From the sequence record PZ386962.1: a stretch of DNA of 42,716 bases, one strand, 5' to 3'. The position numbers and the translations under genes were made by a program. Source of the DNA: a phage. This document shows, piece after piece, positions 3,463 to 42,378 of the stretch. Under the pieces are notes generated by a model. The model was given only the letters and a program-made list of their open reading frames with translations, did not search any database and was not told where the DNA came from. Within the stretch, counting starts at the first letter, position 1. Each line of letters begins with the position of its first letter.

Positions 3463-3998
3463 TGACTAACTTTGAAATCTGTATGCGGTTCACCGGGCTG
3501 GCAGAAGGCGGTTACGCCAACCTGCCCGGCGACACCGGAGGGGAAACGAATCATGGAATTAGTGACGCTCGTGATGGAAAGCTGGATGGTAGAGCTTGCG
3601 GTGTCCCTACTGGGCTTGGCGGCACTATTTGTGTGCCTATCCGCGACCTCACCAAAGCGCAAGCCGAAGCAATCTATCGACGGGACTACTACAGCCCCAT
3701 CCGAGGTGACGAGCTTCACCCTGCGATTGCATGTGCCGTGTTCGACTACGGCGTTAACTCAGGTGTCTCCCGTGCGGCGAAAGCTCTACAGCGGGTATGC
3801 GGCGTTGCACAAGACGGGGTTATTGGCCCTGCTACCGTGGCAGCAGCCAAACGTCTGGAACCTCGCTCCGCAGCAGCAGCCATCTGTAACCTTCGTATTG
3901 CGTTCCTAAAGGCTTCTACAGCCCCAACAATCGTTCGGTATAGGGATGCCTTGGTAGCTCGTGCAAAACGCTGTAGCGCTTACTGTGCGACGCTGTAG
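3462..3998 (+). CDS. endolysin, GH108-like N-terminal domain with peptidoglycan-binding C-terminal domain
   Basis: EGGY motif near N-terminus (FTGLAEGGYANLPGD) as in GH108 family enzymes; DGxxGxxT-type motif (QDGVIGPATV) as in PG_binding_3 domains; no signal peptide, so holin-dependent. Confidence 0.7.
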   Translation: MTNFEICMRFTGLAEGGYANLPGDTGGETNHGISDARDGKLDGRACGVPTGLGGTICVPIRDLTKAQAEAIYRRDYYSPIRGDELHPAIACAVFDYGVNSGVSRAAKALQRVCGVAQDGVIGPATVAAAKRLEPRSAAAAICNLRIAFLKASTAPTIVRYRDALVARAKRCSAYCATL

Positions 3999-4200
3999 GG
4001 GTATCCGAAAGCTGAGGCAATGAACAGGCCGTGGGTGCAATACCCCGGCTTGAAAATTGACTATTTGTACGTGCCCCTCCCTCGACCCAAATGACCGCGC
4101 GTACCCCCATGACGTGTGCGCGGATTAGCCTCGCGACGTGCGCGATAATTGCTCGCGTGCGCTGCGCGGCGCGTCGAAAGGATTGCCTGCGTTCGGTATA

Positions 4201-4608
4201 GCTCGTGCGTGTCGCGTTTCATCGTCTGCCGTGTGGCGTGCTGTGCGCTGTCCTGCTGGCTGTGCTGTGTGCCTGCTGTGTGGGCTATCGGTGGCGGTGT
4301 GGTGCTGTCCTGTGGGGACGCTCTGCGCTGGCTGTGCGGTGCTGTGCGCTGCGCGTGGTCGTGCGGGTATCTGTCTCTTTTCGTCGTGGTGTGTGGTGCT
4401 GGTGTGTAGCGGTGTGCGGCGTGGTGCTGCCGTCCTGCTGTGTGGTGTGCTGGTCTACTGTCTGCGCCTGCCAGCTCTGCGCGTCGTACTCTGCTACCTG
4501 CTGTTACTGTCCTACTGCCTTCACTGTCTGCCGTCTGTCAGTCCTACGGTCTGCCATCCGTCATCCGTTCGGCGCTCGCTTGTTTCGGCTGCGCCGCGCT
4601 CGCTCTGC
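4201..4608. repeat. A-depleted GT/GC-rich compositional island with degenerate short repeats
   Basis: About 400 bp in which the + strand has only ~16 A by hand count; built from degenerate GCTGTG / CTGTGCGCTG / ACTGTCTGCC units; long ORFs in all three + frames are a composition artefact. Confidence 0.7.
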
Positions 4609-4617
4609 GTATCTAGC

Positions 4618-4635
4618 GATACTATATCACTATAG
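4618..4635 (+). promoter_or_regulatory. T7-like phage promoter core candidate (TCACTATAG) near presumed genome left end
   Basis: GATACTATATCACTATAG: last 9 nt identical to T7 class promoter -8 to +1 (TCACTATAG); reverse complement carries the ATGAAAGTGTCTATAG element also found at 25618. Confidence 0.3.
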
Positions 4636-4651
4636 ACACTTTCATAATTAT

Positions 4652-4672
4652 CTAATGATTACAGTAACTTAT
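4652..4672. repeat. 21-bp direct repeat copy 1 (CTAATGATTACAGTAACTTAT)
   Basis: Exact 21-mer repeated at 4731-4751 within an AT-rich stretch. Confidence 0.85.
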
Positions 4673-4730
4673 AACCTATCTGATAACGGTATTCTATCCA
4701 GTGTTAGGATTATCTAATCAAACTTTAATC

Positions 4731-4751
4731 CTAATGATTACAGTAACTTAT
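4731..4751. repeat. 21-bp direct repeat copy 2 (CTAATGATTACAGTAACTTAT)
   Basis: Exact copy of 4652-4672. Confidence 0.85.
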
Positions 4752-4772
4752 CACTTTTCTTGAAAATAATAC

Positions 4773-4801
4773 TTGCAAAGGTATTCGGTATTTGCTGTAA
4801 T
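4773..4801 (+). promoter_or_regulatory. sigma70-type early promoter candidate 1
   Basis: TTGCAA (-35) - 17 bp - TGcTGTAAT (extended -10). Confidence 0.5.
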
Positions 4802-4878
4802 TCATATCGCCGGACAACACAGCGTCAACGTGTTGGACGGTGTAGGACGGTAACACTGCTCTTTAACAATCTGGTGTG

Positions 4879-4907
4879 TTGACAAGGCAAGCTCACTATG
4901 CTGTAAT
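4879..4907 (+). promoter_or_regulatory. sigma70-type early promoter candidate 2
   Basis: TTGACA - 17 bp - TGcTGTAAT (extended -10 TGn). Confidence 0.6.
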
Positions 4908-5015
4908 GCTTCCACGTCAGCCAGCAAGCTAAACAGTCATTGATAAAGACGTTAAAACACACGTAGGCGAACTGGTACGGTTTAATTAACTCTGAAAGGG
5001 CGCTGATTAAAACGG

Positions 5016-5044
5016 TTGACAGGATGAAATGAGTATGCTGTAAT
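5016..5044 (+). promoter_or_regulatory. sigma70-type early promoter candidate 3
   Basis: TTGACA - 17 bp - TGcTGTAAT. Confidence 0.6.
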
Positions 5045-5095
5045 GCACACCAGATTGACAGGGCAGCAAGCCAGTCAGTCAGAAGTAAAAAGTAG

Positions 5096-5124
5096 TTGAC
5101 ACGCTGAATACGATGTGATGTAAT
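5096..5124 (+). promoter_or_regulatory. sigma70-type early promoter candidate 4
   Basis: TTGACA - 17 bp - TGaTGTAAT. Confidence 0.6.
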
Positions 5125-5556
5125 CAGCACCGAGTTGAAAGGTTGCAAAACAACCTGCTCTGAGTGAACGTAAACAGGCCACGTAGTGTCTCGGCCTCAT
5201 GGGTATCCGGCGCAGCTAGGAACTGGTGAGGGCACCGCCGAAAGGCAATAGGGGTAGCGCCCGGTGCGATGGGAACGGAGAAGCGCGATAGACGCAGCGC
5301 AGTATCAGCACAATCCCAAACGTCTTATAAGGCGCGGAGTGAAGCGGGTAGGTAGGCAAGCTGGTAACGGTGAGCCGGACTGCTGGAGGACTCCTGAGAG
5401 TGGATGCAGACAATATCCACGGCGCGAAATGGGCGGGGCGATTTTTCAGGGTAGTGAATCCGACAAGCCAATCAATGCCAACGAGTGCAGACTGTACGGC
5501 GCGTCACAATGGGTTCACTATCCACCTGAAAATAGCCAACAACTGGAGAAATTAAT

Positions 5557-5946
5557 ATGTACCGTATCTATGCAAGCGCATATCGTCAGGGCAACGCTGA
5601 GTCAGTCAATCTGGCGCTTCATTGCAAGGCACTGCGAACGGTGCAGGACATGTTCGGAGTGGTTCCGGTCACACTGACAGGCAAGTTCGACAATGCGTAT
5701 GAGTTAAGCATGGTCTTCCCTGTCGATGGAATCTACGAAATCCGACAGGCTGTTAAGCTGTTTTGTAAAGCCTTCGAACAGGACTGCATCATGGTAGTGA
5801 CCAAAGACGACGATGCAATCTTCATGGACTCACCGTATCCGGGTAAGCCTGCTGGCAAGCTGGTCAGCAAGACTAACGAGGAAATGGAAGCCGGGCAGCA
5901 TACCGCTTGGACTTACGATGGTGAGCAATTTTGGGTAGTGGAGTAA
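5557..5946 (+). CDS. hypothetical early protein
   Basis: 129-aa ORF, GGAGA RBS 6 nt upstream, first well-supported ORF downstream of the promoter cluster. Confidence 0.6.
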   Translation: MYRIYASAYRQGNAESVNLALHCKALRTVQDMFGVVPVTLTGKFDNAYELSMVFPVDGIYEIRQAVKLFCKAFEQDCIMVVTKDDDAIFMDSPYPGKPAGKLVSKTNEEMEAGQHTAWTYDGEQFWVVE

Positions 5947-15222: not shown

Positions 15223-17688
15223 ATGGCAATTAGAGCACAGGTAATCGACGTTGAGACTGAGAACCATGAGTGGTACGGGGAGCTGGCATCGCCGCGCTGC
15301 CCGGATAACTATGTGGTTATGCAGGGCCAGCGTGACTGTGTGCTGACCAAGGATGGCTGGGTATTCTACGAGCGCGAGGAGTATCGGTACAGTTCTCGTG
15401 AGGACTGGTTGCAGAACAAGAGTCTGCACCTGCATCCTGACACGAACATTCTGGTAGCTCACAACGCGCCGTATGAATTGAGCTGGTGGTTCGAGCATTA
15501 CGGTGACGAGTTCATTGCCTTCCTCAAACGAGGTGGCCGTGTATTCTGTACCGCGTATGCTGAGTACCTGCTGACGCATCAGCAATCCCAGTACCCATCC
15601 TTGAACGAGACAGCACCGAAGTATGGTGGTACTCACAAGGTGGATGCAGTCAAGGCAATGTGGGAGTCAGGCTATCTGACCAGCCAGATTGACCCTGAGC
15701 TGTTGAGCGAGTATCTGTCCGGGCCGTCCGGGGATATTGAGAACACGACCAAGCTGTTCGTTGGTCAGTGGGCTGAACTGACAAAGCAGGGCATGTTGCC
15801 GATGGCACTGACCCGCTTCGAAGGTATGCTCATGTGGGCGTACATGATGCACGCTGGTCTGCATGTTGACCGTGAGGTAGCCGAGCGCAACCGTCGCGAG
15901 TTACAGGATGCAATCAGTGGACTGACTGATACCCTACTGAGTTACCTGCCAGCCGACATGCCGAAGGAAGCGCGTGAGCAATTCAAGTTCACGTCAGCTT
16001 ATCACATGAGCGCCTTCGTGTTCGGTGGTGTGATGAAGTACAAGGCGCGAGTCGAGCGCCGGGATGCCGAGGGCAATCTCATTTACGTGAAGGTGGATGC
16101 ACCACTGTTCAAGCGAGGCAAGGACAAGTGGCTCAAGCATACCAGCGAGTGTGAGTGGGATGACGAGACTGGGTTGTGGTATGACCCGGTTGAGAAGGTA
16201 CACCAGACTATCTACACCAGCGGCAAGCACAAGGGCGAGCCGAAGTTTGAGAAGCTGGCTACCGACGAGGTGGATACCAAGTGGGGTGAGGTGCTGTTCC
16301 GTATGCCGGGGCTTCTGCGTGTGCAGGACAAACGAGCGAAGGAGATTGCAGACAACCTCGAATGGGAAGACCCGAAGAAGCCGGGCGAGTATCTCCGGCG
16401 CACAGGTGATTGGGTAGGTAAGCGTAGGCTGGCCGATGGTTCCCCGGTATTCAGTACGGCGGGTGAGGTGCTGGACATTCTGGCAGCTCGTAAGATTCCC
16501 GGCGTGGTGGAGATTGCTGACCGGGCCAAGGCACAGAAAGACCTCGGCACCTACTACCTCAGCGAGACGTTCGATGAAGAAGGTAACGTGACTGGCCAGT
16601 CGGGGATGATGCAGTTCATCCAGCCGGACAGTATCGTACACCACACCATCAACATGACCGCGACCGAGACGACGCGCTTATCTTCGGCGCGACCGAACAG
16701 CCAGAACTTGCCACGTAAAGGTACGAGTAAGGTTAAGCAGATGTTCACCTCCCGCTTTGGTGAAGGTGGCCGCATCGTTGAAGCTGACTACTCGGCACTG
16801 GAAGTGGTGGGGCTGGCCGGGTTCAGTAAGGATAAGAACCTGATTCGTGCATTGCTCGACGGTATCGACATGCACTGTATGCGTCTGTCAGCTCAGCTCA
16901 ACGAGCCATACGAGGACGTGCTTAAGAAGTGCAAGGATGAATCCCATCCCGACCATGCACGATACAGTCAGATGCGTACTGACATTAAGCCGAAGGCGTT
17001 CTCATATCAGTATGGTGCAACAGCGCGAGGTATTGCGTACTCGACTGGTTGCTCTGAGGAAGAAGCTCAAGCGTTCATCGACAACGAGAAGGGTCTGTTC
17101 CCGGAAGTTGAAGAATGGTTCGACTCGGTTATCTTCCCAGCCGTAGAGAAAAGTGGACAGAGCAATGTGTTCAAGGAGCAGGACGAGAACGGAAGATGGC
17201 AGGTGTATCGCCGTGGTCACTTCCGGTCGCCGGGTGGAACTTGTTATTCATTCCGTCAGTACGAGAAATGGAACAAGGCGGCGCGTGCTCACCTGATGGA
17301 ATACAAACCAACTCAGATGCGTAACTATCCCATTCAGGGTGAGACAGCATTTTGGGTACAGGGAATCGGTGGCTTGCTGTTCCGCTGGCTGCTATCGAAT
17401 GACTTCTTTGGTGGGCGTGTGGTTCCCATCAACCAAGTGCATGACGCATTCTATTTCGACATTGCACCTGACTGCCCTCACGAGTTCTTCGTTGGACTCA
17501 AGGCAATCATGGAGAGCATCCCGGAATACTATAACCACGTATGGCCAGAGTATAACCTGACAGTGCCGTTCCCGGCAGAGGTGGAAGCAGGGCCAAGCAT
17601 GTACGAGAAGCACCACGTAGAGACGACAGCCGATGAAGTGCTGGAGTTTAAGAGACAATTCCTGTTGAGTAAGGGTATCGCATTATGA
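15223..17688 (+). CDS. DNA polymerase, family A (T7 gp5-like) with 3'-5' exonuclease domain
   Basis: Exo I DxE (VIDVETE), motif A (EADYSALEV), motif B R-x3-K-x3-F-x2-YG (RTDIKPKAFSYQYG), motif C region (VHDAFYFD); 821 aa. Confidence 0.85.
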   Translation: MAIRAQVIDVETENHEWYGELASPRCPDNYVVMQGQRDCVLTKDGWVFYEREEYRYSSREDWLQNKSLHLHPDTNILVAHNAPYELSWWFEHYGDEFIAFLKRGGRVFCTAYAEYLLTHQQSQYPSLNETAPKYGGTHKVDAVKAMWESGYLTSQIDPELLSEYLSGPSGDIENTTKLFVGQWAELTKQGMLPMALTRFEGMLMWAYMMHAGLHVDREVAERNRRELQDAISGLTDTLLSYLPADMPKEAREQFKFTSAYHMSAFVFGGVMKYKARVERRDAEGNLIYVKVDAPLFKRGKDKWLKHTSECEWDDETGLWYDPVEKVHQTIYTSGKHKGEPKFEKLATDEVDTKWGEVLFRMPGLLRVQDKRAKEIADNLEWEDPKKPGEYLRRTGDWVGKRRLADGSPVFSTAGEVLDILAARKIPGVVEIADRAKAQKDLGTYYLSETFDEEGNVTGQSGMMQFIQPDSIVHHTINMTATETTRLSSARPNSQNLPRKGTSKVKQMFTSRFGEGGRIVEADYSALEVVGLAGFSKDKNLIRALLDGIDMHCMRLSAQLNEPYEDVLKKCKDESHPDHARYSQMRTDIKPKAFSYQYGATARGIAYSTGCSEEEAQAFIDNEKGLFPEVEEWFDSVIFPAVEKSGQSNVFKEQDENGRWQVYRRGHFRSPGGTCYSFRQYEKWNKAARAHLMEYKPTQMRNYPIQGETAFWVQGIGGLLFRWLLSNDFFGGRVVPINQVHDAFYFDIAPDCPHEFFVGLKAIMESIPEYYNHVWPEYNLTVPFPAEVEAGPSMYEKHHVETTADEVLEFKRQFLLSKGIAL

Positions 17689-19971: not shown

Positions 19972-20278
19972 CGAGCCGATGGTAGACCTCAAGCTCATGG
20001 TGGTTGACCATGACCATGTGAGCGGGGAGATTCGCGGTGTCATCTGTCGCTGGTGTAATGCTCAGCTCGGTAAGGTAGAGAACTCTGCGAACCGGGCGAA
20101 GCGCCAGCGTACAGTTGACGACTGGTTGGACAGTGCCATTGAGTGGCGACGTAAGCAACACACTGGTCTGATGTACCCAACGCACAAGACCGAGGCAGAG
20201 AAGAAAGCGGCGATGGCCGACAGACGTAAGAAGGCGGCAGCCGCGAAAGCGCGAGCCTTAATCACTAAGGGGAAATGA
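19946..20278 (+). CDS. endonuclease VII-like Holliday junction resolvase
   Basis: Zinc-binding HNH-like core CPCPLCNEPMVDLKLMVVDHDHVSGEIRGVICRWCN typical of endonuclease VII family; start uncertain (19886, 19931 or 19946). Confidence 0.6.
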   Translation: MGCPCPLCNEPMVDLKLMVVDHDHVSGEIRGVICRWCNAQLGKVENSANRAKRQRTVDDWLDSAIEWRRKQHTGLMYPTHKTEAEKKAAMADRRKKAAAAKARALITKGK

Positions 20279-23155: not shown

Positions 23156-25588
23156 GTGGACTTACTTGCTGAGCAGATTCGACTTGAAGAAGAAGCACGA
23201 GCCAGACACCGCGAGGGCTGGCTGGACAATATCAAAGAAGCCATGGCTAGTGGCCGGGCCGGGTCGGTGCCGTTGCTCCAGCGTATGATGGTAGAGGCGT
23301 ATCCTCTTGTCGAAGCTGCGATGCAAGAAACCCTGAACGAAACGACCCGTGGGTACGGTGCGCAGTACCGGACGTACATGCGTGAGATTGGCACCAAGGC
23401 GTGTGCCTCTCTTGCACTGAGCATGGCGGTGTCCGGTGCTGCGTCGGAGCAGGCGGTGCTGAGTCTGCTTAAGAGTATGGGTAAAGCGCTGATGGCTGAG
23501 GTGGTGTATCTCCGGGCGAAGCAGACCGGGCCACAGCAGGCAGCGTACATGGAGCGCGTGAAGCAGGACGTTAAGAAGTCCCGGTCGAAGTCAGCCAACC
23601 ACGTCTACAACAAAGCGCGTGCGTCGGCGGCGAACGTTGGGGTCGAGATTGATGTGCTGCCGCAGCGTGCTCTGATTACCATTGGCAAGCTGATGATGAA
23701 ATGCGTGGAGCCAACTGGGTTGGTGGCTACGATTCGCGTCGGCGGCAACCAACGTCAGCGCGGTACGGCACACTTCGCACTGCATGAGGATGTGCTGGCT
23801 ACGATGAACGACTGGCTGGACATGCCGCGTGCTGATGGCATGTGCTGCCCACCGTTGATTATCCCACCGAAGCAGATTGCACCGAACGGTCGCAGCGGTA
23901 TGTGGCACTCGGATGGGCAGGCGGCGATGTACCGGGTAATGAGTCGCATGAACCACAAAGGGTATCGTGCATTGAACGTTGACCCGACCCCTGTTATAGA
24001 GCCGTGTATGATGCTCAGCAGCGTTCCGTACCGAATTAACCCAATGGTACTGGAGTTCCTGAGAACGAACCGTACAGGCGTTATGGGGCTGCCTGTGCCG
24101 CCTCGTGAGCCTAAGCTCCCATTCACCATCCCGGCTGGTGTCAGCTTCGCGCAGTACATCAGCAAGTTCCCACCAGAGATGCAGCAGCAGATGGATGCCG
24201 AGGCTCATGAGTACAAGGTTAAGACTCGCTTGTATTACAATGAGTTGCGTAAGTTCACGTCGCAGATGCTGGCGCTGAATGGTGCAGTCAAAGAGGCAGA
24301 GCGCTATGCGCATTATGACCGGGTATACCTCCCGACCTACGCTGATACACGGGGCCGAATTTATTATTCTTCGACCCTTAACCCTCAGTCCATCGACGCA
24401 GTGCGAGCGCTGCTCGAACTTGCTGAACCAGTGGCTCTCGGAAGTGAGGGGTTATTCTGGCTCAAGGTACATGTTGCGAATTGCTTCGGCTACGACGCGA
24501 CAGACTTCGAAGACCGGGCGGCGTGGACGGACAAGACACTCCCCCGACTACGTGAGGCGTGCCGTCTTCCAGAGGCATTTGATTCGTTCTGGTCAGAGGC
24601 CGATAGCCCTATCAGCGCGTGGGCTGCATCTGTTGAACTCATTCGCGCTATCGACTCAGGAAATCCTGCGGCTTATCCCTGCCGAGTGGTTACACAATGG
24701 GACGCTACCTGTTCAGGATTACAGCACCTCAGTGCGATGTTACGAGATGAGGTTGGAGGTGCTGCTGTCAATCTTATCGACAGCGTGGGAAGAAAAGCAG
24801 ACATATATCTCAAGACGGCAGCAGCGGCGATGCAGGCTCTTGAAGAAAGTGAGGCAGCAGCGCCGACGCAAATGGGTACGTGGCTTGTTAGCATCGGCAT
24901 CGTTCGGGCTATGGCCAAGAAGCCAGTGATGACCTACGTGTACGGGGCAACCCGGCATGGTATGGTTGATTACTACTGCCTGTATCTGCGTGAGAACCGG
25001 GTCAAGCTGCCGGACGGCAAGAGCCTGCTGGAGTGTGCGCAGTTCATCGCAGAGTTCATGTGGAACGCTATCCCTCGCGTTGTGCCGAAGGCGGCTGAGC
25101 TGATGGCATGGTTGCAGGCTATCGCAGTTGAGGCGGCAGCCAACGGCGAGTACGTGGAAATCATCGCACCGTCAGGGTTGCGGGTGGTTAACCTGTACCA
25201 AGCCAGTAAGGAGACGATGCTCAACAACATCAACCTCATGGGTATCCACAGCATTAAGCTGCGTGAGTATCTGGACAAGCCGGACAGCCGGAAGTGTGCT
25301 GCTGCGATTGCTCCGAATTTCGTACACGCTATGGATGCCAGCCACATGATGAAGGTGCTGTGGGAGATGTGGAACAACGGGGTGTACATGGTATCCATCC
25401 ATGACTCGTTCGGTGTTGCGGCGGCACATGCTGGTCTGCTGCATAAGGTCATTCGTGAAAAGTTCGTACAGATGTATGAGCAACATGACCCAATTCAACA
25501 GCTTGCGGTAAGATACAATGCTGTTCCACCTGAGCGGGGCAATCTGGACATCCAGCTTGTGAAACAATCAAGCAAGTTTTTCTGCTGA
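23156..25588 (+). CDS. single-subunit DNA-dependent RNA polymerase (T7 RNAP family)
   Basis: Motif A-like DATCSGLQHLSAML, motif B-like KKPVMTYVYGAT, motif C HDSFG; 810 aa; GTG start with AAGGAG RBS; sits directly upstream of the structural genes as in phiKMV-like phages. Confidence 0.9.
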   Translation: MDLLAEQIRLEEEARARHREGWLDNIKEAMASGRAGSVPLLQRMMVEAYPLVEAAMQETLNETTRGYGAQYRTYMREIGTKACASLALSMAVSGAASEQAVLSLLKSMGKALMAEVVYLRAKQTGPQQAAYMERVKQDVKKSRSKSANHVYNKARASAANVGVEIDVLPQRALITIGKLMMKCVEPTGLVATIRVGGNQRQRGTAHFALHEDVLATMNDWLDMPRADGMCCPPLIIPPKQIAPNGRSGMWHSDGQAAMYRVMSRMNHKGYRALNVDPTPVIEPCMMLSSVPYRINPMVLEFLRTNRTGVMGLPVPPREPKLPFTIPAGVSFAQYISKFPPEMQQQMDAEAHEYKVKTRLYYNELRKFTSQMLALNGAVKEAERYAHYDRVYLPTYADTRGRIYYSSTLNPQSIDAVRALLELAEPVALGSEGLFWLKVHVANCFGYDATDFEDRAAWTDKTLPRLREACRLPEAFDSFWSEADSPISAWAASVELIRAIDSGNPAAYPCRVVTQWDATCSGLQHLSAMLRDEVGGAAVNLIDSVGRKADIYLKTAAAAMQALEESEAAAPTQMGTWLVSIGIVRAMAKKPVMTYVYGATRHGMVDYYCLYLRENRVKLPDGKSLLECAQFIAEFMWNAIPRVVPKAAELMAWLQAIAVEAAANGEYVEIIAPSGLRVVNLYQASKETMLNNINLMGIHSIKLREYLDKPDSRKCAAAIAPNFVHAMDASHMMKVLWEMWNNGVYMVSIHDSFGVAAAHAGLLHKVIREKFVQMYEQHDPIQQLAVRYNAVPPERGNLDIQLVKQSSKFFC

Positions 25589-40006: not shown

Positions 40007-42378
40007 TGGCGAACAGCTATAATACTTACGTGGCGAACGGTTCACAGACCGCATTCCTCGTCACGTTCGAGCAGCGCGTGTTCACTGAGATTCAGGTGTA
40101 CCTCAACTCCGAACTCCAGACGAGCGGATACACCTACAACTCTGTGACCAAACAGATTGTCTTTGACACCGCCCCGCCAATCGGGGTGATTGTCCGACTC
40201 CAACGCTACACCTCCGATATTCTGCTTAACAAGTTCGGTCAGGACGCTGCCTTCACGGGCAGCAACCTCGACGAGAACTTCGAGCAGATTCTGTTTAAGG
40301 CTGAGGAAACTCAGGAGGCATGGCTCGCGCCGCTTGACCGCGCAGTCCGTGTCCCGAACTCCGAAGTCTCCATCAACGCATTACCGAACGTCGCTGGCCG
40401 CCGTAACAAGGCATTGGGCTTTGACAACGCTGGCCAGCCGTTCATGATTCCTCTGGTTGATATTCCTGACTCAGCTCTGGCCATTGCGCTGGCGATGAAT
40501 GACGGCGGTAAGTGGATTGGCACCCTTGGCGGTGGTACGTTCCTCGACCGTCAGGACACTGTGTGTCTGTCAGAGTTCACCAACAACACTGGCTATGCGT
40601 CCATCGCTGCCGCTGTGCAGGCATGTTTCGACTATGCCAAGGCAAACGGTAAGGTTGTGGATGCACGCGGCTGGGAAGGCACTGTGGACTCCACGGTGAC
40701 AATGGATGGTATTGAGGTCGTCGGCGGTACGTGGCACGGTAAGGCAGATATTCGACTGATTGACTCAACGTTCCGCAACTTCAAGGCATCCACTGTGCGT
40801 GTGGCATACTGGGGTGGCAAGGTTCGCATTGCTGACTATGAGTTCACCAGTGCGCCGAGCAACTCCAAAGTTACGTCAATCCTGTTCCAAGGCAACATCG
40901 CCGGGGGCAGCTACGTAATCGAGAACGGTATCCACCGTAACGGCAAGTTCGGTATTCTGCAACAGGGTACTGGTGAGGCTATCACCAACGGCATTATCCG
41001 CAACGTCGCTATGATGGACATGATGGGTGATGGCATTGAGATGAACGTAATCAACAAGCACTATGACGGTGGCCTGCTGATTGAGAACATCTACCTTGAG
41101 AATATCGACGGCACCAACGCACCTATTCCACTGTCCAACTGGGGCATCGGTATCGGTATTGCAGGTCAAGGCCCGTTTGGTTGGGATGCTGCTGAGACTC
41201 AGTACGCGAAGAACGTAACCGTGCGTAACGTCCATGCTCCGCGCGGTGTACGTCAGGTTGTCCACTTCGAAGTTACCCGCGACAGCGTGTGCGAGAACGT
41301 GGTCTGTAACCCTGACCTGTCCGTGTCCACTGGTACTGGCCTGTCTGCTGCTGGCGTAATCACGTACGGCTGCAAACGCATGACCATTGATGGCGTGGTT
41401 GGTGAGCCTATCAACACAGGTGCAACCTCCCCTAACGATATTCGTCTCGTTATGCTGGAGTGGGGTGCTAACCAAGCAGGTGCTGGCGGTACGCCGGGTG
41501 CTGCGTGTCCATCTTTTGACATGACCGTGCGCAACGTGCAGACCCGCACCGGGCGCTTCTATGCAGGTGTCGGCTCCGACGACGATAACACCAACACGTA
41601 CCACCTTGAAAACATTCACTGTTACAAGATGACGCTGTTCGGTGTGGCTACTCTGCTGAACATGACCAACGTTACTGGTGTCGTATTCGACGCAGTTGGT
41701 GATGACTCCAGCGGCGGTACTTCATCCAACGGTGTGTACCCGCGTAAGAAGACGTGCCTGAACATGGTGAACGTGAACTTCTACGGGCCGGGTATGACCG
41801 AGGGTGCGCTGTACAGTAAGGCTCGCTACTCTGACATTAGCACGCTGAACTCCAACGTGCGTGCCATCCCTTACTCTAACATCCAAGGTAACGTTGGCGC
41901 TATCCTGTCTCCAGTGAACCGCATCCTGACGCTGCCAAACAACTTGGCAACGCTGACAGGTGCTGAGTTCCCGACTGGTAAAGAGTTCCCGGAAGGTACT
42001 GTCCTGCTGAAAACTGATGGTTCTGGTGGTAACTTCATCGTCACCCAGTTTGGTGCCTACATCCCTAATGATGGCAACAACTTTAAGGTGCGTGCTGCTG
42101 CTGCTGGCCAGACGTATCTGGAGCAGAACCTGACTCCGGCTGGTACTCAGGCATCCACCTCGTGGCTGTACCATAAACCAATCTCTGCTGGCACCCGGTT
42201 GAACATCCCCGGCGCTGGGCCGAGTGGCGGTACACTGACCGTGACGGTGGTGCGTGCTCCTTATCAGGTGGACAACAACATCGGGAACCCGGTACGCATC
42301 GACATCACCCCGGCCATTGTGACGGCTATCCCTGCTGGGACTCAGCTCGCCGCAACTTATCCGGTGGCTTACATCTAA
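40006..42378 (+). CDS. tail fiber / tailspike protein with probable beta-helix enzymatic domain
   Basis: N-terminal segment resembles the T7 gp17-type tail attachment domain in pattern and placement (MANSYNTYVANGSQTAFLVTFEQ...); central region has repeated NVxVRNV-like strands typical of right-handed parallel beta-helix depolymerases. Confidence 0.7.
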   Translation: MANSYNTYVANGSQTAFLVTFEQRVFTEIQVYLNSELQTSGYTYNSVTKQIVFDTAPPIGVIVRLQRYTSDILLNKFGQDAAFTGSNLDENFEQILFKAEETQEAWLAPLDRAVRVPNSEVSINALPNVAGRRNKALGFDNAGQPFMIPLVDIPDSALAIALAMNDGGKWIGTLGGGTFLDRQDTVCLSEFTNNTGYASIAAAVQACFDYAKANGKVVDARGWEGTVDSTVTMDGIEVVGGTWHGKADIRLIDSTFRNFKASTVRVAYWGGKVRIADYEFTSAPSNSKVTSILFQGNIAGGSYVIENGIHRNGKFGILQQGTGEAITNGIIRNVAMMDMMGDGIEMNVINKHYDGGLLIENIYLENIDGTNAPIPLSNWGIGIGIAGQGPFGWDAAETQYAKNVTVRNVHAPRGVRQVVHFEVTRDSVCENVVCNPDLSVSTGTGLSAAGVITYGCKRMTIDGVVGEPINTGATSPNDIRLVMLEWGANQAGAGGTPGAACPSFDMTVRNVQTRTGRFYAGVGSDDDNTNTYHLENIHCYKMTLFGVATLLNMTNVTGVVFDAVGDDSSGGTSSNGVYPRKKTCLNMVNVNFYGPGMTEGALYSKARYSDISTLNSNVRAIPYSNIQGNVGAILSPVNRILTLPNNLATLTGAEFPTGKEFPEGTVLLKTDGSGGNFIVTQFGAYIPNDGNNFKVRAAAAGQTYLEQNLTPAGTQASTSWLYHKPISAGTRLNIPGAGPSGGTLTVTVVRAPYQVDNNIGNPVRIDITPAIVTAIPAGTQLAATYPVAYI

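Follow-up and report, generated by a model that had tools for sequence, protein, structure and literature searches.

In phage T7, tandem Escherichia coli promoters (A1, A2 and A3; annotated starts 498, 626 and 750) stand on one strand in the first kilobase of the genome, past the terminal repeat. Here we describe a promoter cluster of this known kind in a phage DNA of 42,716 nt (sequence record PZ386962.1; the whole of this stretch is called the window below). Its four sites, S1 to S4, lie between positions 4773 and 5124 on the + strand, and they are very probably the early promoters of a Bonnellvirus, used by the host RNA polymerase in its E. coli-type sigma70 holoenzyme. What is distinctive about the cluster is a universal G at position −11, a boxA that follows the first promoter only, and a large, conserved leader RNA.

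The T7 promoters and the four sites share a consensus or near-consensus −35 hexamer, a 17-bp spacer and a non-consensus −10 hexamer (TTGACT/TTGACA-17-GATACT/TAAGAT/TACGAT in T7), and the leaders of both contain an identical 17-nt element, GCTCTTTAACAATCTGG. In both, the first gene is anti-restriction: 0.3 (Ocr) in T7, and a SAM (S-adenosylmethionine) hydrolase, or SAMase, here. The first gene of T3 is a SAMase too. In contrast, the T7 −10 hexamers keep A at −11 and T at −7, whereas all four sites here read TGTAAT; boxA follows all three promoters in T7 but only the first of four here; and the leader here is longer and more elaborately folded. In T7 the RNA polymerase gene is an early gene, some 3 kb from the end, whereas here about 18 kb lie between the promoters and the gene of the phage RNA polymerase. 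The likeness to A1–A3 drawn in an earlier, sequence-only reading of the locus holds for layout and position and is strengthened by the shared GCTCTTTAACAATCTGG; gene order, however, is phiKMV-like.

Because of this gene order, the left-end promoters of LUZ19 and phiKMV are a closer model than those of T7. LUZ19, a phiKMV-like Pseudomonas phage, has five left-end host promoters (P002–P006) identified by ONT-cappable-seq, and P002–P005 drove reporter expression in E. coli (PMC10914365). As at our locus, four to five sigma70-like promoters lie upstream of the first gene, and the phage RNA polymerase gene comes after the genes of DNA metabolism; the host and the promoter sequences differ, and the LUZ19 promoters were mapped, whereas ours are predicted from sequence.

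Closer in descent are the Waewaeviruses, which together with Bonnellvirus make up the whole of the Stentvirinae (Autographivirales, Autoscriptoviridae). The record of the Pantoea phage LIMEzero (Waewaevirus; NC_015585) lists 'putative Pantoea specific promoters' at 801–847, 928–974 and 1399–1445. The first of these is the orthologue of S1 (TTGTCA-17-TGTAAT) and the last that of S4 (TTGACG-17-TGTAAT); a boxA, CGCTCTTTATACAATCTGG, lies between the two, and the same leader and terminal hairpin precede the SAMase gene. In LIMEzero and two related contigs, the stretch from boxA to the last promoter, which holds S2 and S3 in Bonnellviruses, instead carries an open reading frame (ORF) of about 115 aa. 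In phage GAP227, an annotated promoter at 1069–1095 (TTGACA-17-TAAAGT) is the positional homologue of S4.

Four predicted sigma70 promoters in tandem

The sites, as read from the window and recovered by pattern search, are the following.

4773–4801, + strand: predicted promoter S1 (P1); TTGCAA at 4773–4778, 17-nt spacer, TGc at 4793–4795, TGTAAT at 4796–4801; predicted start about 4808–4809
4879–4907, + strand: predicted promoter S2 (P2); TTGACA at 4879–4884, 17-nt spacer, TGc at 4899–4901, TGTAAT at 4902–4907; predicted start about 4914
5016–5044, + strand: predicted promoter S3 (P3); TTGACA at 5016–5021, 17-nt spacer, TGc at 5036–5038, TGTAAT at 5039–5044; predicted start about 5051–5052
5096–5124, + strand: predicted promoter S4 (P4); TTGACA at 5096–5101, 17-nt spacer, TGa at 5116–5118, TGTAAT at 5119–5124; predicted start about 5131–5132
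4762–4770, + strand: A/T tract GAAAATAAT, UP-element-like, just upstream of the S1 −35 hexamer

The cluster thus runs from the first base of the S1 −35 hexamer (4773) to the last base of the S4 −10 hexamer (5124), and the four + strand sites with TTGACA or TTGCAA, 17 bp and TGnTGTAAT are present exactly as the sequence-only reading had listed them. The −35 hexamer matches TTGACA at six of six positions in S2–S4 and at four of six in S1. Each −10 hexamer matches TATAAT at five of six positions, with T at −7 and without A at −11, and is extended by TG at −15/−14, which in S2–S4 stands in a TRTG context. The A/T tract is nearly invariant in 13 phages, and GAAAATAA within it is fully so; it may act as an UP element. 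S4 is preceded by GTAAAAAGTAG.

These matches are far more frequent than chance predicts. TTGACA-N17-TGTAAT with at most one mismatch occurs three times (0.16 expected), a number that none of 100 shuffled sequences reached. The extended hexamer TGNTGTAAT occurs six times in the window (0.96 expected); four of these are the promoter sites, and the other two, at 20051 and 24718, have no −35 hexamer. When both strands of the whole window were scored by consensus match, the four sites ranked first to fourth (12.5, 12.5, 12.5 and 10.5; the next site scored 10), and block-shuffled sequences contained on average 0.02 sites at or above 12.5, the level of S2–S4. No other comparably good sigma70-like site is found in the genome. 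A generic promoter and terminator scan, on the other hand, found nothing in the promoter region; its rule that the second base of the −10 hexamer be A is the sole reason why all four sites were missed. Promoter prediction, which had been proposed as a check, thus supports the sites with one method and misses them with the other. A further TTGACA, at 5055–5060 and just past the predicted S3 start, was considered as a fifth promoter and rejected, as it has no −10-like partner at 16–18 nt; it is kept in 12 of 13 phages (TTGACG in smaasur).

BLAST of 4600–5560 against phage genomes returned 20 records at 84–96% identity, and all the classified ones belong to the genus Bonnellvirus; among them are J8-65, LF82-23, the Danish '-sur' phages, and isolates from Kosakonia, Pantoea, Enterobacter and Cronobacter. 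We aligned 13 phages (hosts E. coli, Enterobacter, Kosakonia, Pantoea and Cronobacter). None of the 24 −35 columns varies, and only one of the 24 −10 columns does (S4 of smaasur is TGAAAT), compared with 26 of the 56 spacer columns. The TG dinucleotides are invariant, and within the TGn triplets only the n of S4 varies. S1 is a case in point, since its hexamers and TGC are unchanged in 13/13 phages while its spacer sequence diverges. The sites are thus held constant over at least 13 genomes whose flanks differ by 5–25%. On this alignment, fixed hexamers with drifting spacers are the expected outcome of selection on bipartite sigma70 sites, and the earlier assignments of a sigma70 type (1/48 hexamer columns vs. 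26/56 spacer columns) and of strong selection are both borne out. The 'identical geometry' that had been claimed is exact within the window but not among relatives, where the S1 spacer is 17 or 18 nt and the S4 spacer is 18 nt in two phages.

Indels of 1 nt among relatives break every ORF that overlaps the sites, and the region is non-coding. The minus-strand coding sequence annotated at 1804–2169 in ROV85, which corresponds to a 107-aa ORF at 4825–5148 (minus strand) of the window, is broken in the same way and is almost certainly spurious. The records of J8-65, LF82-23, ROV85, HHU8, usur and forsur, and also those of smaasur, Lidtsur, RZ4, Kc261 and glasur, annotate nothing regulatory at the left end. 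Among relatives the promoter region has a mosaic make-up: in BHUENT7, an insertion of about 85 nt (~470–560) separates S1 from boxA.

A duplication had also been suggested, and this idea gains support for one pair of sites. S2 and S3 have TATGCTGTAATGC in common, together with similar downstream tracts, and in phage Lidtsur a deletion between them has fused S2 to S3. On this sequence evidence S2 and S3 are paralogues.

Position at the left end of the genome

By its sequence, the window represents, in circularly permuted form, the genome of a J8-65-like, phiKMV-organised Bonnellvirus of the T7 supergroup. The landmarks that place the promoters in it are these.

4082–4345, + strand: physical left end and terminal direct repeat, approximate, placed by homology to J8-65 only
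5557–5946, + strand: ORF of the SAMase, an anti-restriction SAM hydrolase; first early gene and first coding sequence served by the promoters
23156–25588: 810-aa ORF of the phage RNA polymerase, about 18 kb past the promoters

The left terminus of J8-65 (TCGACCC...) matches the window at about 4082, just past the endolysin gene, and its right end aligns with 3848–4272. In J8-65, the terminal repeats are 259 bp long (repeat_region 1–259 and 40723–40981); the permuted assembly of the window has a single copy. The four sites therefore lie about 690–1040 bp inside the left end, beyond the terminal repeat, and point rightward to the first gene, as expected if they face the early genes at the genome start. 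Homologues of the first gene are annotated in relatives as SAMase or as 'SAM-dependent methyltransferase'. Every J8-65 gene is on one strand, and, as in phiKMV, the genes of DNA metabolism come before that of the RNA polymerase. Bonnellvirus coliphages are candidates for phage therapy, and the cluster marks where their infection programme probably starts.

G at position −11 and alternative readings

The feature that sets these sites apart from other sigma70 promoters is the base at −11. It is G in 57/57 sites, drawn from the 13 phages of the alignment, an additional viral contig and a fragment from a metagenome; 56 of the hexamers are TGTAAT and one is TGAAAT, and TATAAT, a single transition away from TGTAAT, does not occur. 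Among Waewaevirus-like sites, TGTAAT is found in four of six (the others are AACTAT and TTAGAT). Sister lineages, in contrast, keep both A-11 and T-7: KP34 (TAGATT), PP1 (TAAGAT), phD2B (GATATT), GAP227 (TATAGT, TACAGT and TAAAGT) and T7 (GATACT, TAAGAT and TACGAT). A protein-based search for the locus with the SAMase returned close relatives only, and tblastn with the SAMase reached the SP6-like phages, whose left-end promoters keep A-11.

Two pattern scans widened the sample. With GGCGCGTCACAATGGGT, a scan of viral contigs gave two useful Waewaevirus-like contigs and two unrelated coding matches, and with a 17-base leader pattern a metagenome scan gave 52 stretches, of which BLAST identified one as a true relative while the others look like chance occurrences in bacterial contigs. 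A viral-contig scan for TTGACA-N14-TGNTGTAAT was uninformative on TGTAAT in other lineages, as almost all of the matches listed were single.

The G is not an artefact of the register chosen. Aligned base for base, GAP227 and S4 share TTGACA, 17 nt, the hexamer, 4 nt and then ACCGAGTTGA, and this alignment fixes TGTAAT as the −10 hexamer in the canonical register. Other registers (GTAATN or TAATNN, with spacers of 18–19 nt) were tried and rejected, since none gives both A-11 and T-7 and the GAP227 homologue settles the frame.

Several points weigh against taking the sites as the host early promoters. The −11A and −7T are the most conserved bases of promoters, and the adenine sits in a tight pocket that needs its N1 and an unsubstituted C2-H (PMC4496690). 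With G at −11, formation of the open complex could be slow or unstable, and a standard scanner rejects all four sites. Our literature search found neither a description of Bonnellvirus promoters nor a mapped transcription start for the genus. Furthermore, transcription-coupled DNA entry as in T7, the function of boxA and cleavage by RNase III are all put forward here by analogy. That the promoters are 'strong', as was first proposed, is unproven because every −10 hexamer has G in place of the near-universal A at −11.

Other evidence suggests that G-11 need not be disabling. A promoter with 2-aminopurine at −11 still melted when its other elements were optimal (PMC4496690), and a genomic SELEX (systematic evolution of ligands by exponential enrichment) study gives TTGACA-17-TGTAAT as the promoter predicted for bdcA in E. 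coli, inside a segment bound by the RpoD holoenzyme (PMC3946193). As judged from the homologous GAP227 site, which has TAAAGT in the same register, the missing A-11 lowers confidence in the strength of the promoters but not in their sigma70 kind. The A-tract, TTGACA, the 17-bp spacer and the TRTG contacts may well compensate for the weak −10 hexamer, which may be held off full consensus because this avoids over-tight binding or tunes the lifetime of the open complex.

We weighed an alternative in which the host polymerase binds tightly but opens poorly owing to G-11, so that the four are binding or holding sites and productive transcription comes mostly from one of them or from elsewhere. The 57/57 occurrence of G, never replaced by TATAAT, fits this idea, as do the importance of −11A for melting (PMC4496690) and the retention of A-11 in sister lineages. 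Under this view the sites might, for example, hold or catch polymerase on DNA as it enters the cell, or rely on supercoiling or on a phage factor. Yet the window contains no better promoter, although the early and middle genes take up about 18 kb before the gene of the phage RNA polymerase is reached; −7T, −12T, TRTG and the 17-bp spacing are all kept, as in productive promoters; and at the homologous site of GAP227, the hexamer in this register is canonical at both A-11 and T-7. We therefore regard this alternative as improbable.

It is still less probable that TTGACA and TGnTGTAAT are read by an alternative sigma factor, by the phage single-subunit RNA polymerase or by a DNA-binding protein. 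This reading draws on the non-canonical −10 hexamer, on the C at −13 of S1–S3, a base favoured by sigmaS, and on ATTACAG, the complement of CTGTAAT, in both copies of a repeat upstream of S1 (AATGATTACAGTAACTTAT, at 4654 and 4733). However, TTGACA, a spacing of 17 ± 1 nt, a TG-extended hexamer and a free spacer are the architecture of sigma70 sites. Promoters of phage RNA polymerases are contiguous blocks of about 20 bp that should recur past the polymerase gene; the motif shows no such recurrence. Moreover, no phage protein would be present at entry unless it were injected. A search of the whole window for exact 10-mer repeats gave no phage RNA polymerase promoter consensus. Finally, chance matches or decayed, non-functional relics, for which only the imperfect −10 speaks, are effectively refuted by conservation across at least 13 genomes, in line with the shuffling statistics.

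Host sigma70 promoters thus remain the preferred reading. Standard promoter finders miss the sites through one base, and the sites offer natural, strongly selected, near-ideal sigma70 promoters without −11A as substrates for probing how far UP, −35 and TG elements can substitute for this 'master' base.

A boxA downstream of the first promoter

Between the predicted S1 start and S2 lie the following elements.

4808–4842, + strand: hairpin with which the predicted S1 transcript begins, −17.4 kcal/mol by RNAfold, in a boxB-like position upstream of boxA
4857–4869, + strand: boxA TGCTCTTTAACAA, a predicted rrn-type Nus-factor loading sequence, the only exact match in the window
4870–4878, + strand: boxC-like G/T tract TCTGGTGTG, directly after boxA
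4867–4878 (CAATCTGGTGTG) and 5046–5057 (CACACCAGATTG), + strand: 12-nt perfect inverted repeat that brackets S2–S3

Direct comparison shows that 4854–4870 is identical, 17/17, to the E. coli rrnB leader around boxA; BLAST of the region against E. coli genomes gave no match, the stretch being too short for that database. The boxA core, GCTCTTTAACAATCTG, is kept in 13 phages (GTTCTTTAACAA in J8-65) and is also found in the early regions of T7, SP6, phD2B, PP1 and GAP227. The 17-nt GCTCTTTAACAATCTGG at 4858–4874 equals T7 813–829, which lies past A3 and ahead of gene 0.3; SP6, phD2B, PP1 and GAP227 have it too, in exact or nearly exact form. The phage version of boxA, AACAATCTGG, is closer to those of other T7-supergroup phages than to that of rrn (AACAATTTATC), which marks it as an old element of the T7 supergroup rather than a recent acquisition. 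A search on boxA in T7-like phages, SP6-like phages and podoviruses found nothing within the literature covered; boxA-like sequences have reportedly been noted for SP6 and K1-5.

Because boxA lies about 50 nt past the predicted S1 start and directly upstream of the S2 −35 hexamer, only S1 transcripts would contain it. In E. coli rrn operons, P1 and P2 both precede boxA, unlike here; the two systems are alike in having a hairpin upstream and a G/T-rich tract downstream of boxA. The G/T tract at our locus also pairs with a distant downstream complement, like rrn boxC, which pairs in the 16S processing stalk. NusB:NusE binds rrn BoxA with nM affinity (PMC2800207). With boxA after one of four promoters, the cluster offers a simple genetic handle on Nus-factor antitermination in T7-supergroup phages.

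The S1-transcript hairpin varies among relatives in a compensatory manner (CAACAC/GUGUUG, CGACAC/GUGUCG, GUAGC/GCUAC and GUAAC/GUUAC), and it is weak in the LF82-23-type variant. The sequence at 4802–4845 exists in three unrelated variants among Bonnellviruses. The 5' arm of the inverted repeat (4867–4878) overlaps the 3' end of boxA and the boxC-like tract, and its variants co-occur with matching partners, GGTGTG/CACACC and GGAGTGTA/TACGCTCC, in 13/13 phages. In Lidtsur, where S2 and S3 are fused, one promoter lies between the arms and the loop measures about 30 nt. The TTG of the TTGACA at 5055–5060 belongs to the downstream arm.

A structured leader and its terminal hairpin

All four promoters lie upstream of an untranslated, G-rich RNA that extends to the SAMase gene.

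5131–5556, + strand: untranslated, structured leader RNA of about 430 nt, downstream of all four promoters and up to the SAMase start
5443–5532, + strand: long, near-perfect hairpin, a candidate RNase III site, −38.2 kcal/mol (z = −4.1)

The leader folds with a minimum free energy of −155.4 kcal/mol (z = −3.5 vs. shuffles). Compensatory changes occur in 28 of 104 consensus pairs, compared with 9.8 ± 1.8 in shuffled controls (0/500) and 3–10 in slid controls, with the caveat that the structure was derived from the same alignment on which it was tested. Indels of 25 nt and of other lengths not divisible by 3 exclude a coding function. A profile search with the leader found two further Waewaevirus-like contigs (E = 1e-68 and 1e-61) and no match in GAP227, KP34 or SP6-like phages. 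Searches of Rfam at its gathering threshold and at E ≤ 1 matched no family in either the promoters or the leader. The leader is conserved between Bonnellvirus and Waewaevirus, whose neighbouring SAMase proteins are only about 26% identical.

The 90-nt terminal hairpin ends 12 nt before the GGAG of the SAMase gene. Its helices 16–18 are paired at 100% in 13 sequences, and LIMEzero carries compensatory changes in it (GC to UA and AU to CG). We take its position to be analogous to that of the T7 RNase III site R0.3.

At its 5' end, the leader sequence CGAGUUG pairs with CAACUGG beside the Shine-Dalgarno sequence. Close to where the S4 transcript would begin, 5140–5156 forms a small hairpin (AGGTTG-CAAAA-CAACCT). 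In about half of the relatives, a T/A pair in it is swapped for A/T, a compensatory change, and a similar hairpin is present in GAP227.

A model for early transcription

By analogy with T7 and LUZ19, the leading DNA end would enter the cell and host RNA polymerase would bind at the cluster, where all early transcription would begin. The upstream A-tract, the (near-)consensus −35 hexamers, the 17-bp spacers and TRTGn would recruit polymerase strongly, which may offset a TGTAAT hexamer that lacks the A-11 from which melting nucleates. As about 18 kb separate the cluster from the phage RNA polymerase gene, host transcription probably covers the middle genes too. In J8-65, a small gene annotated as 'anti-termination protein Q-like' (16899–17165) lies directly 5' of the polymerase gene and may have a bearing on how host transcription gets as far as that point or beyond it.

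Transcripts from P1 alone would carry the 5' hairpin and the rrn/T7-type boxA at 4857–4869. If boxA acts as it does in rrn operons, it would load NusB/NusE-based antitermination factors and yield Rho-resistant polymerases, and P2–P4 would add initiations downstream of it. All transcripts would traverse the G-rich, structured 430-nt leader, and RNase III probably cleaves them in the 90-nt terminal hairpin, shortly before the ribosome-binding site of the SAMase gene, again by analogy.

A more ambitious version, which we consider rather unlikely, holds that G-11 is adaptive and that the Stentvirinae have evolved a kinetic promoter class of their own, with a division of labour between P1 and P2–P4. 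If so, maximal recruitment (A-tract, TTGACA, 17 bp and TRTG) would be paired with handicapped or short-lived melting. Nus-modified, Rho-resistant polymerases from P1 would cover the approximately 18 kb to the phage RNA polymerase gene, perhaps pulling the genome into the cell, while unmodified polymerases from P2–P4 would mainly produce the 430-nt leader RNA and SAMase. The leader, being kept across genera whose SAMases are only about 26% identical, would in this case serve a separate function, in addition to RNase III processing.

Further features of the left end

The promoter region differs in composition from its surroundings, with a G+C content of 0.30–0.46 over 4600–5100 vs. 0.55–0.65 on both flanks. 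From about 4100 to 4600, across the terminal repeat and the sequence beyond it, the DNA shows a strong strand asymmetry, being G+T-rich and A-poor with an AT skew down to −0.86, and it consists of short repeats, degenerate in sequence, such as GGTGCTG and CTGTGTGG. Upstream of S1, the AT-rich DNA contains the two exact copies of the 19-bp AATGATTACAGTAACTTAT, at 4654–4672 and 4733–4751, with no other copy in the window; each includes the palindrome TTACAGTAA as well as ATTACAG. The first copy is missing from J8-65, smaasur and Lidtsur, and the second is kept in all 13 phages, in diverged form in Lidtsur.

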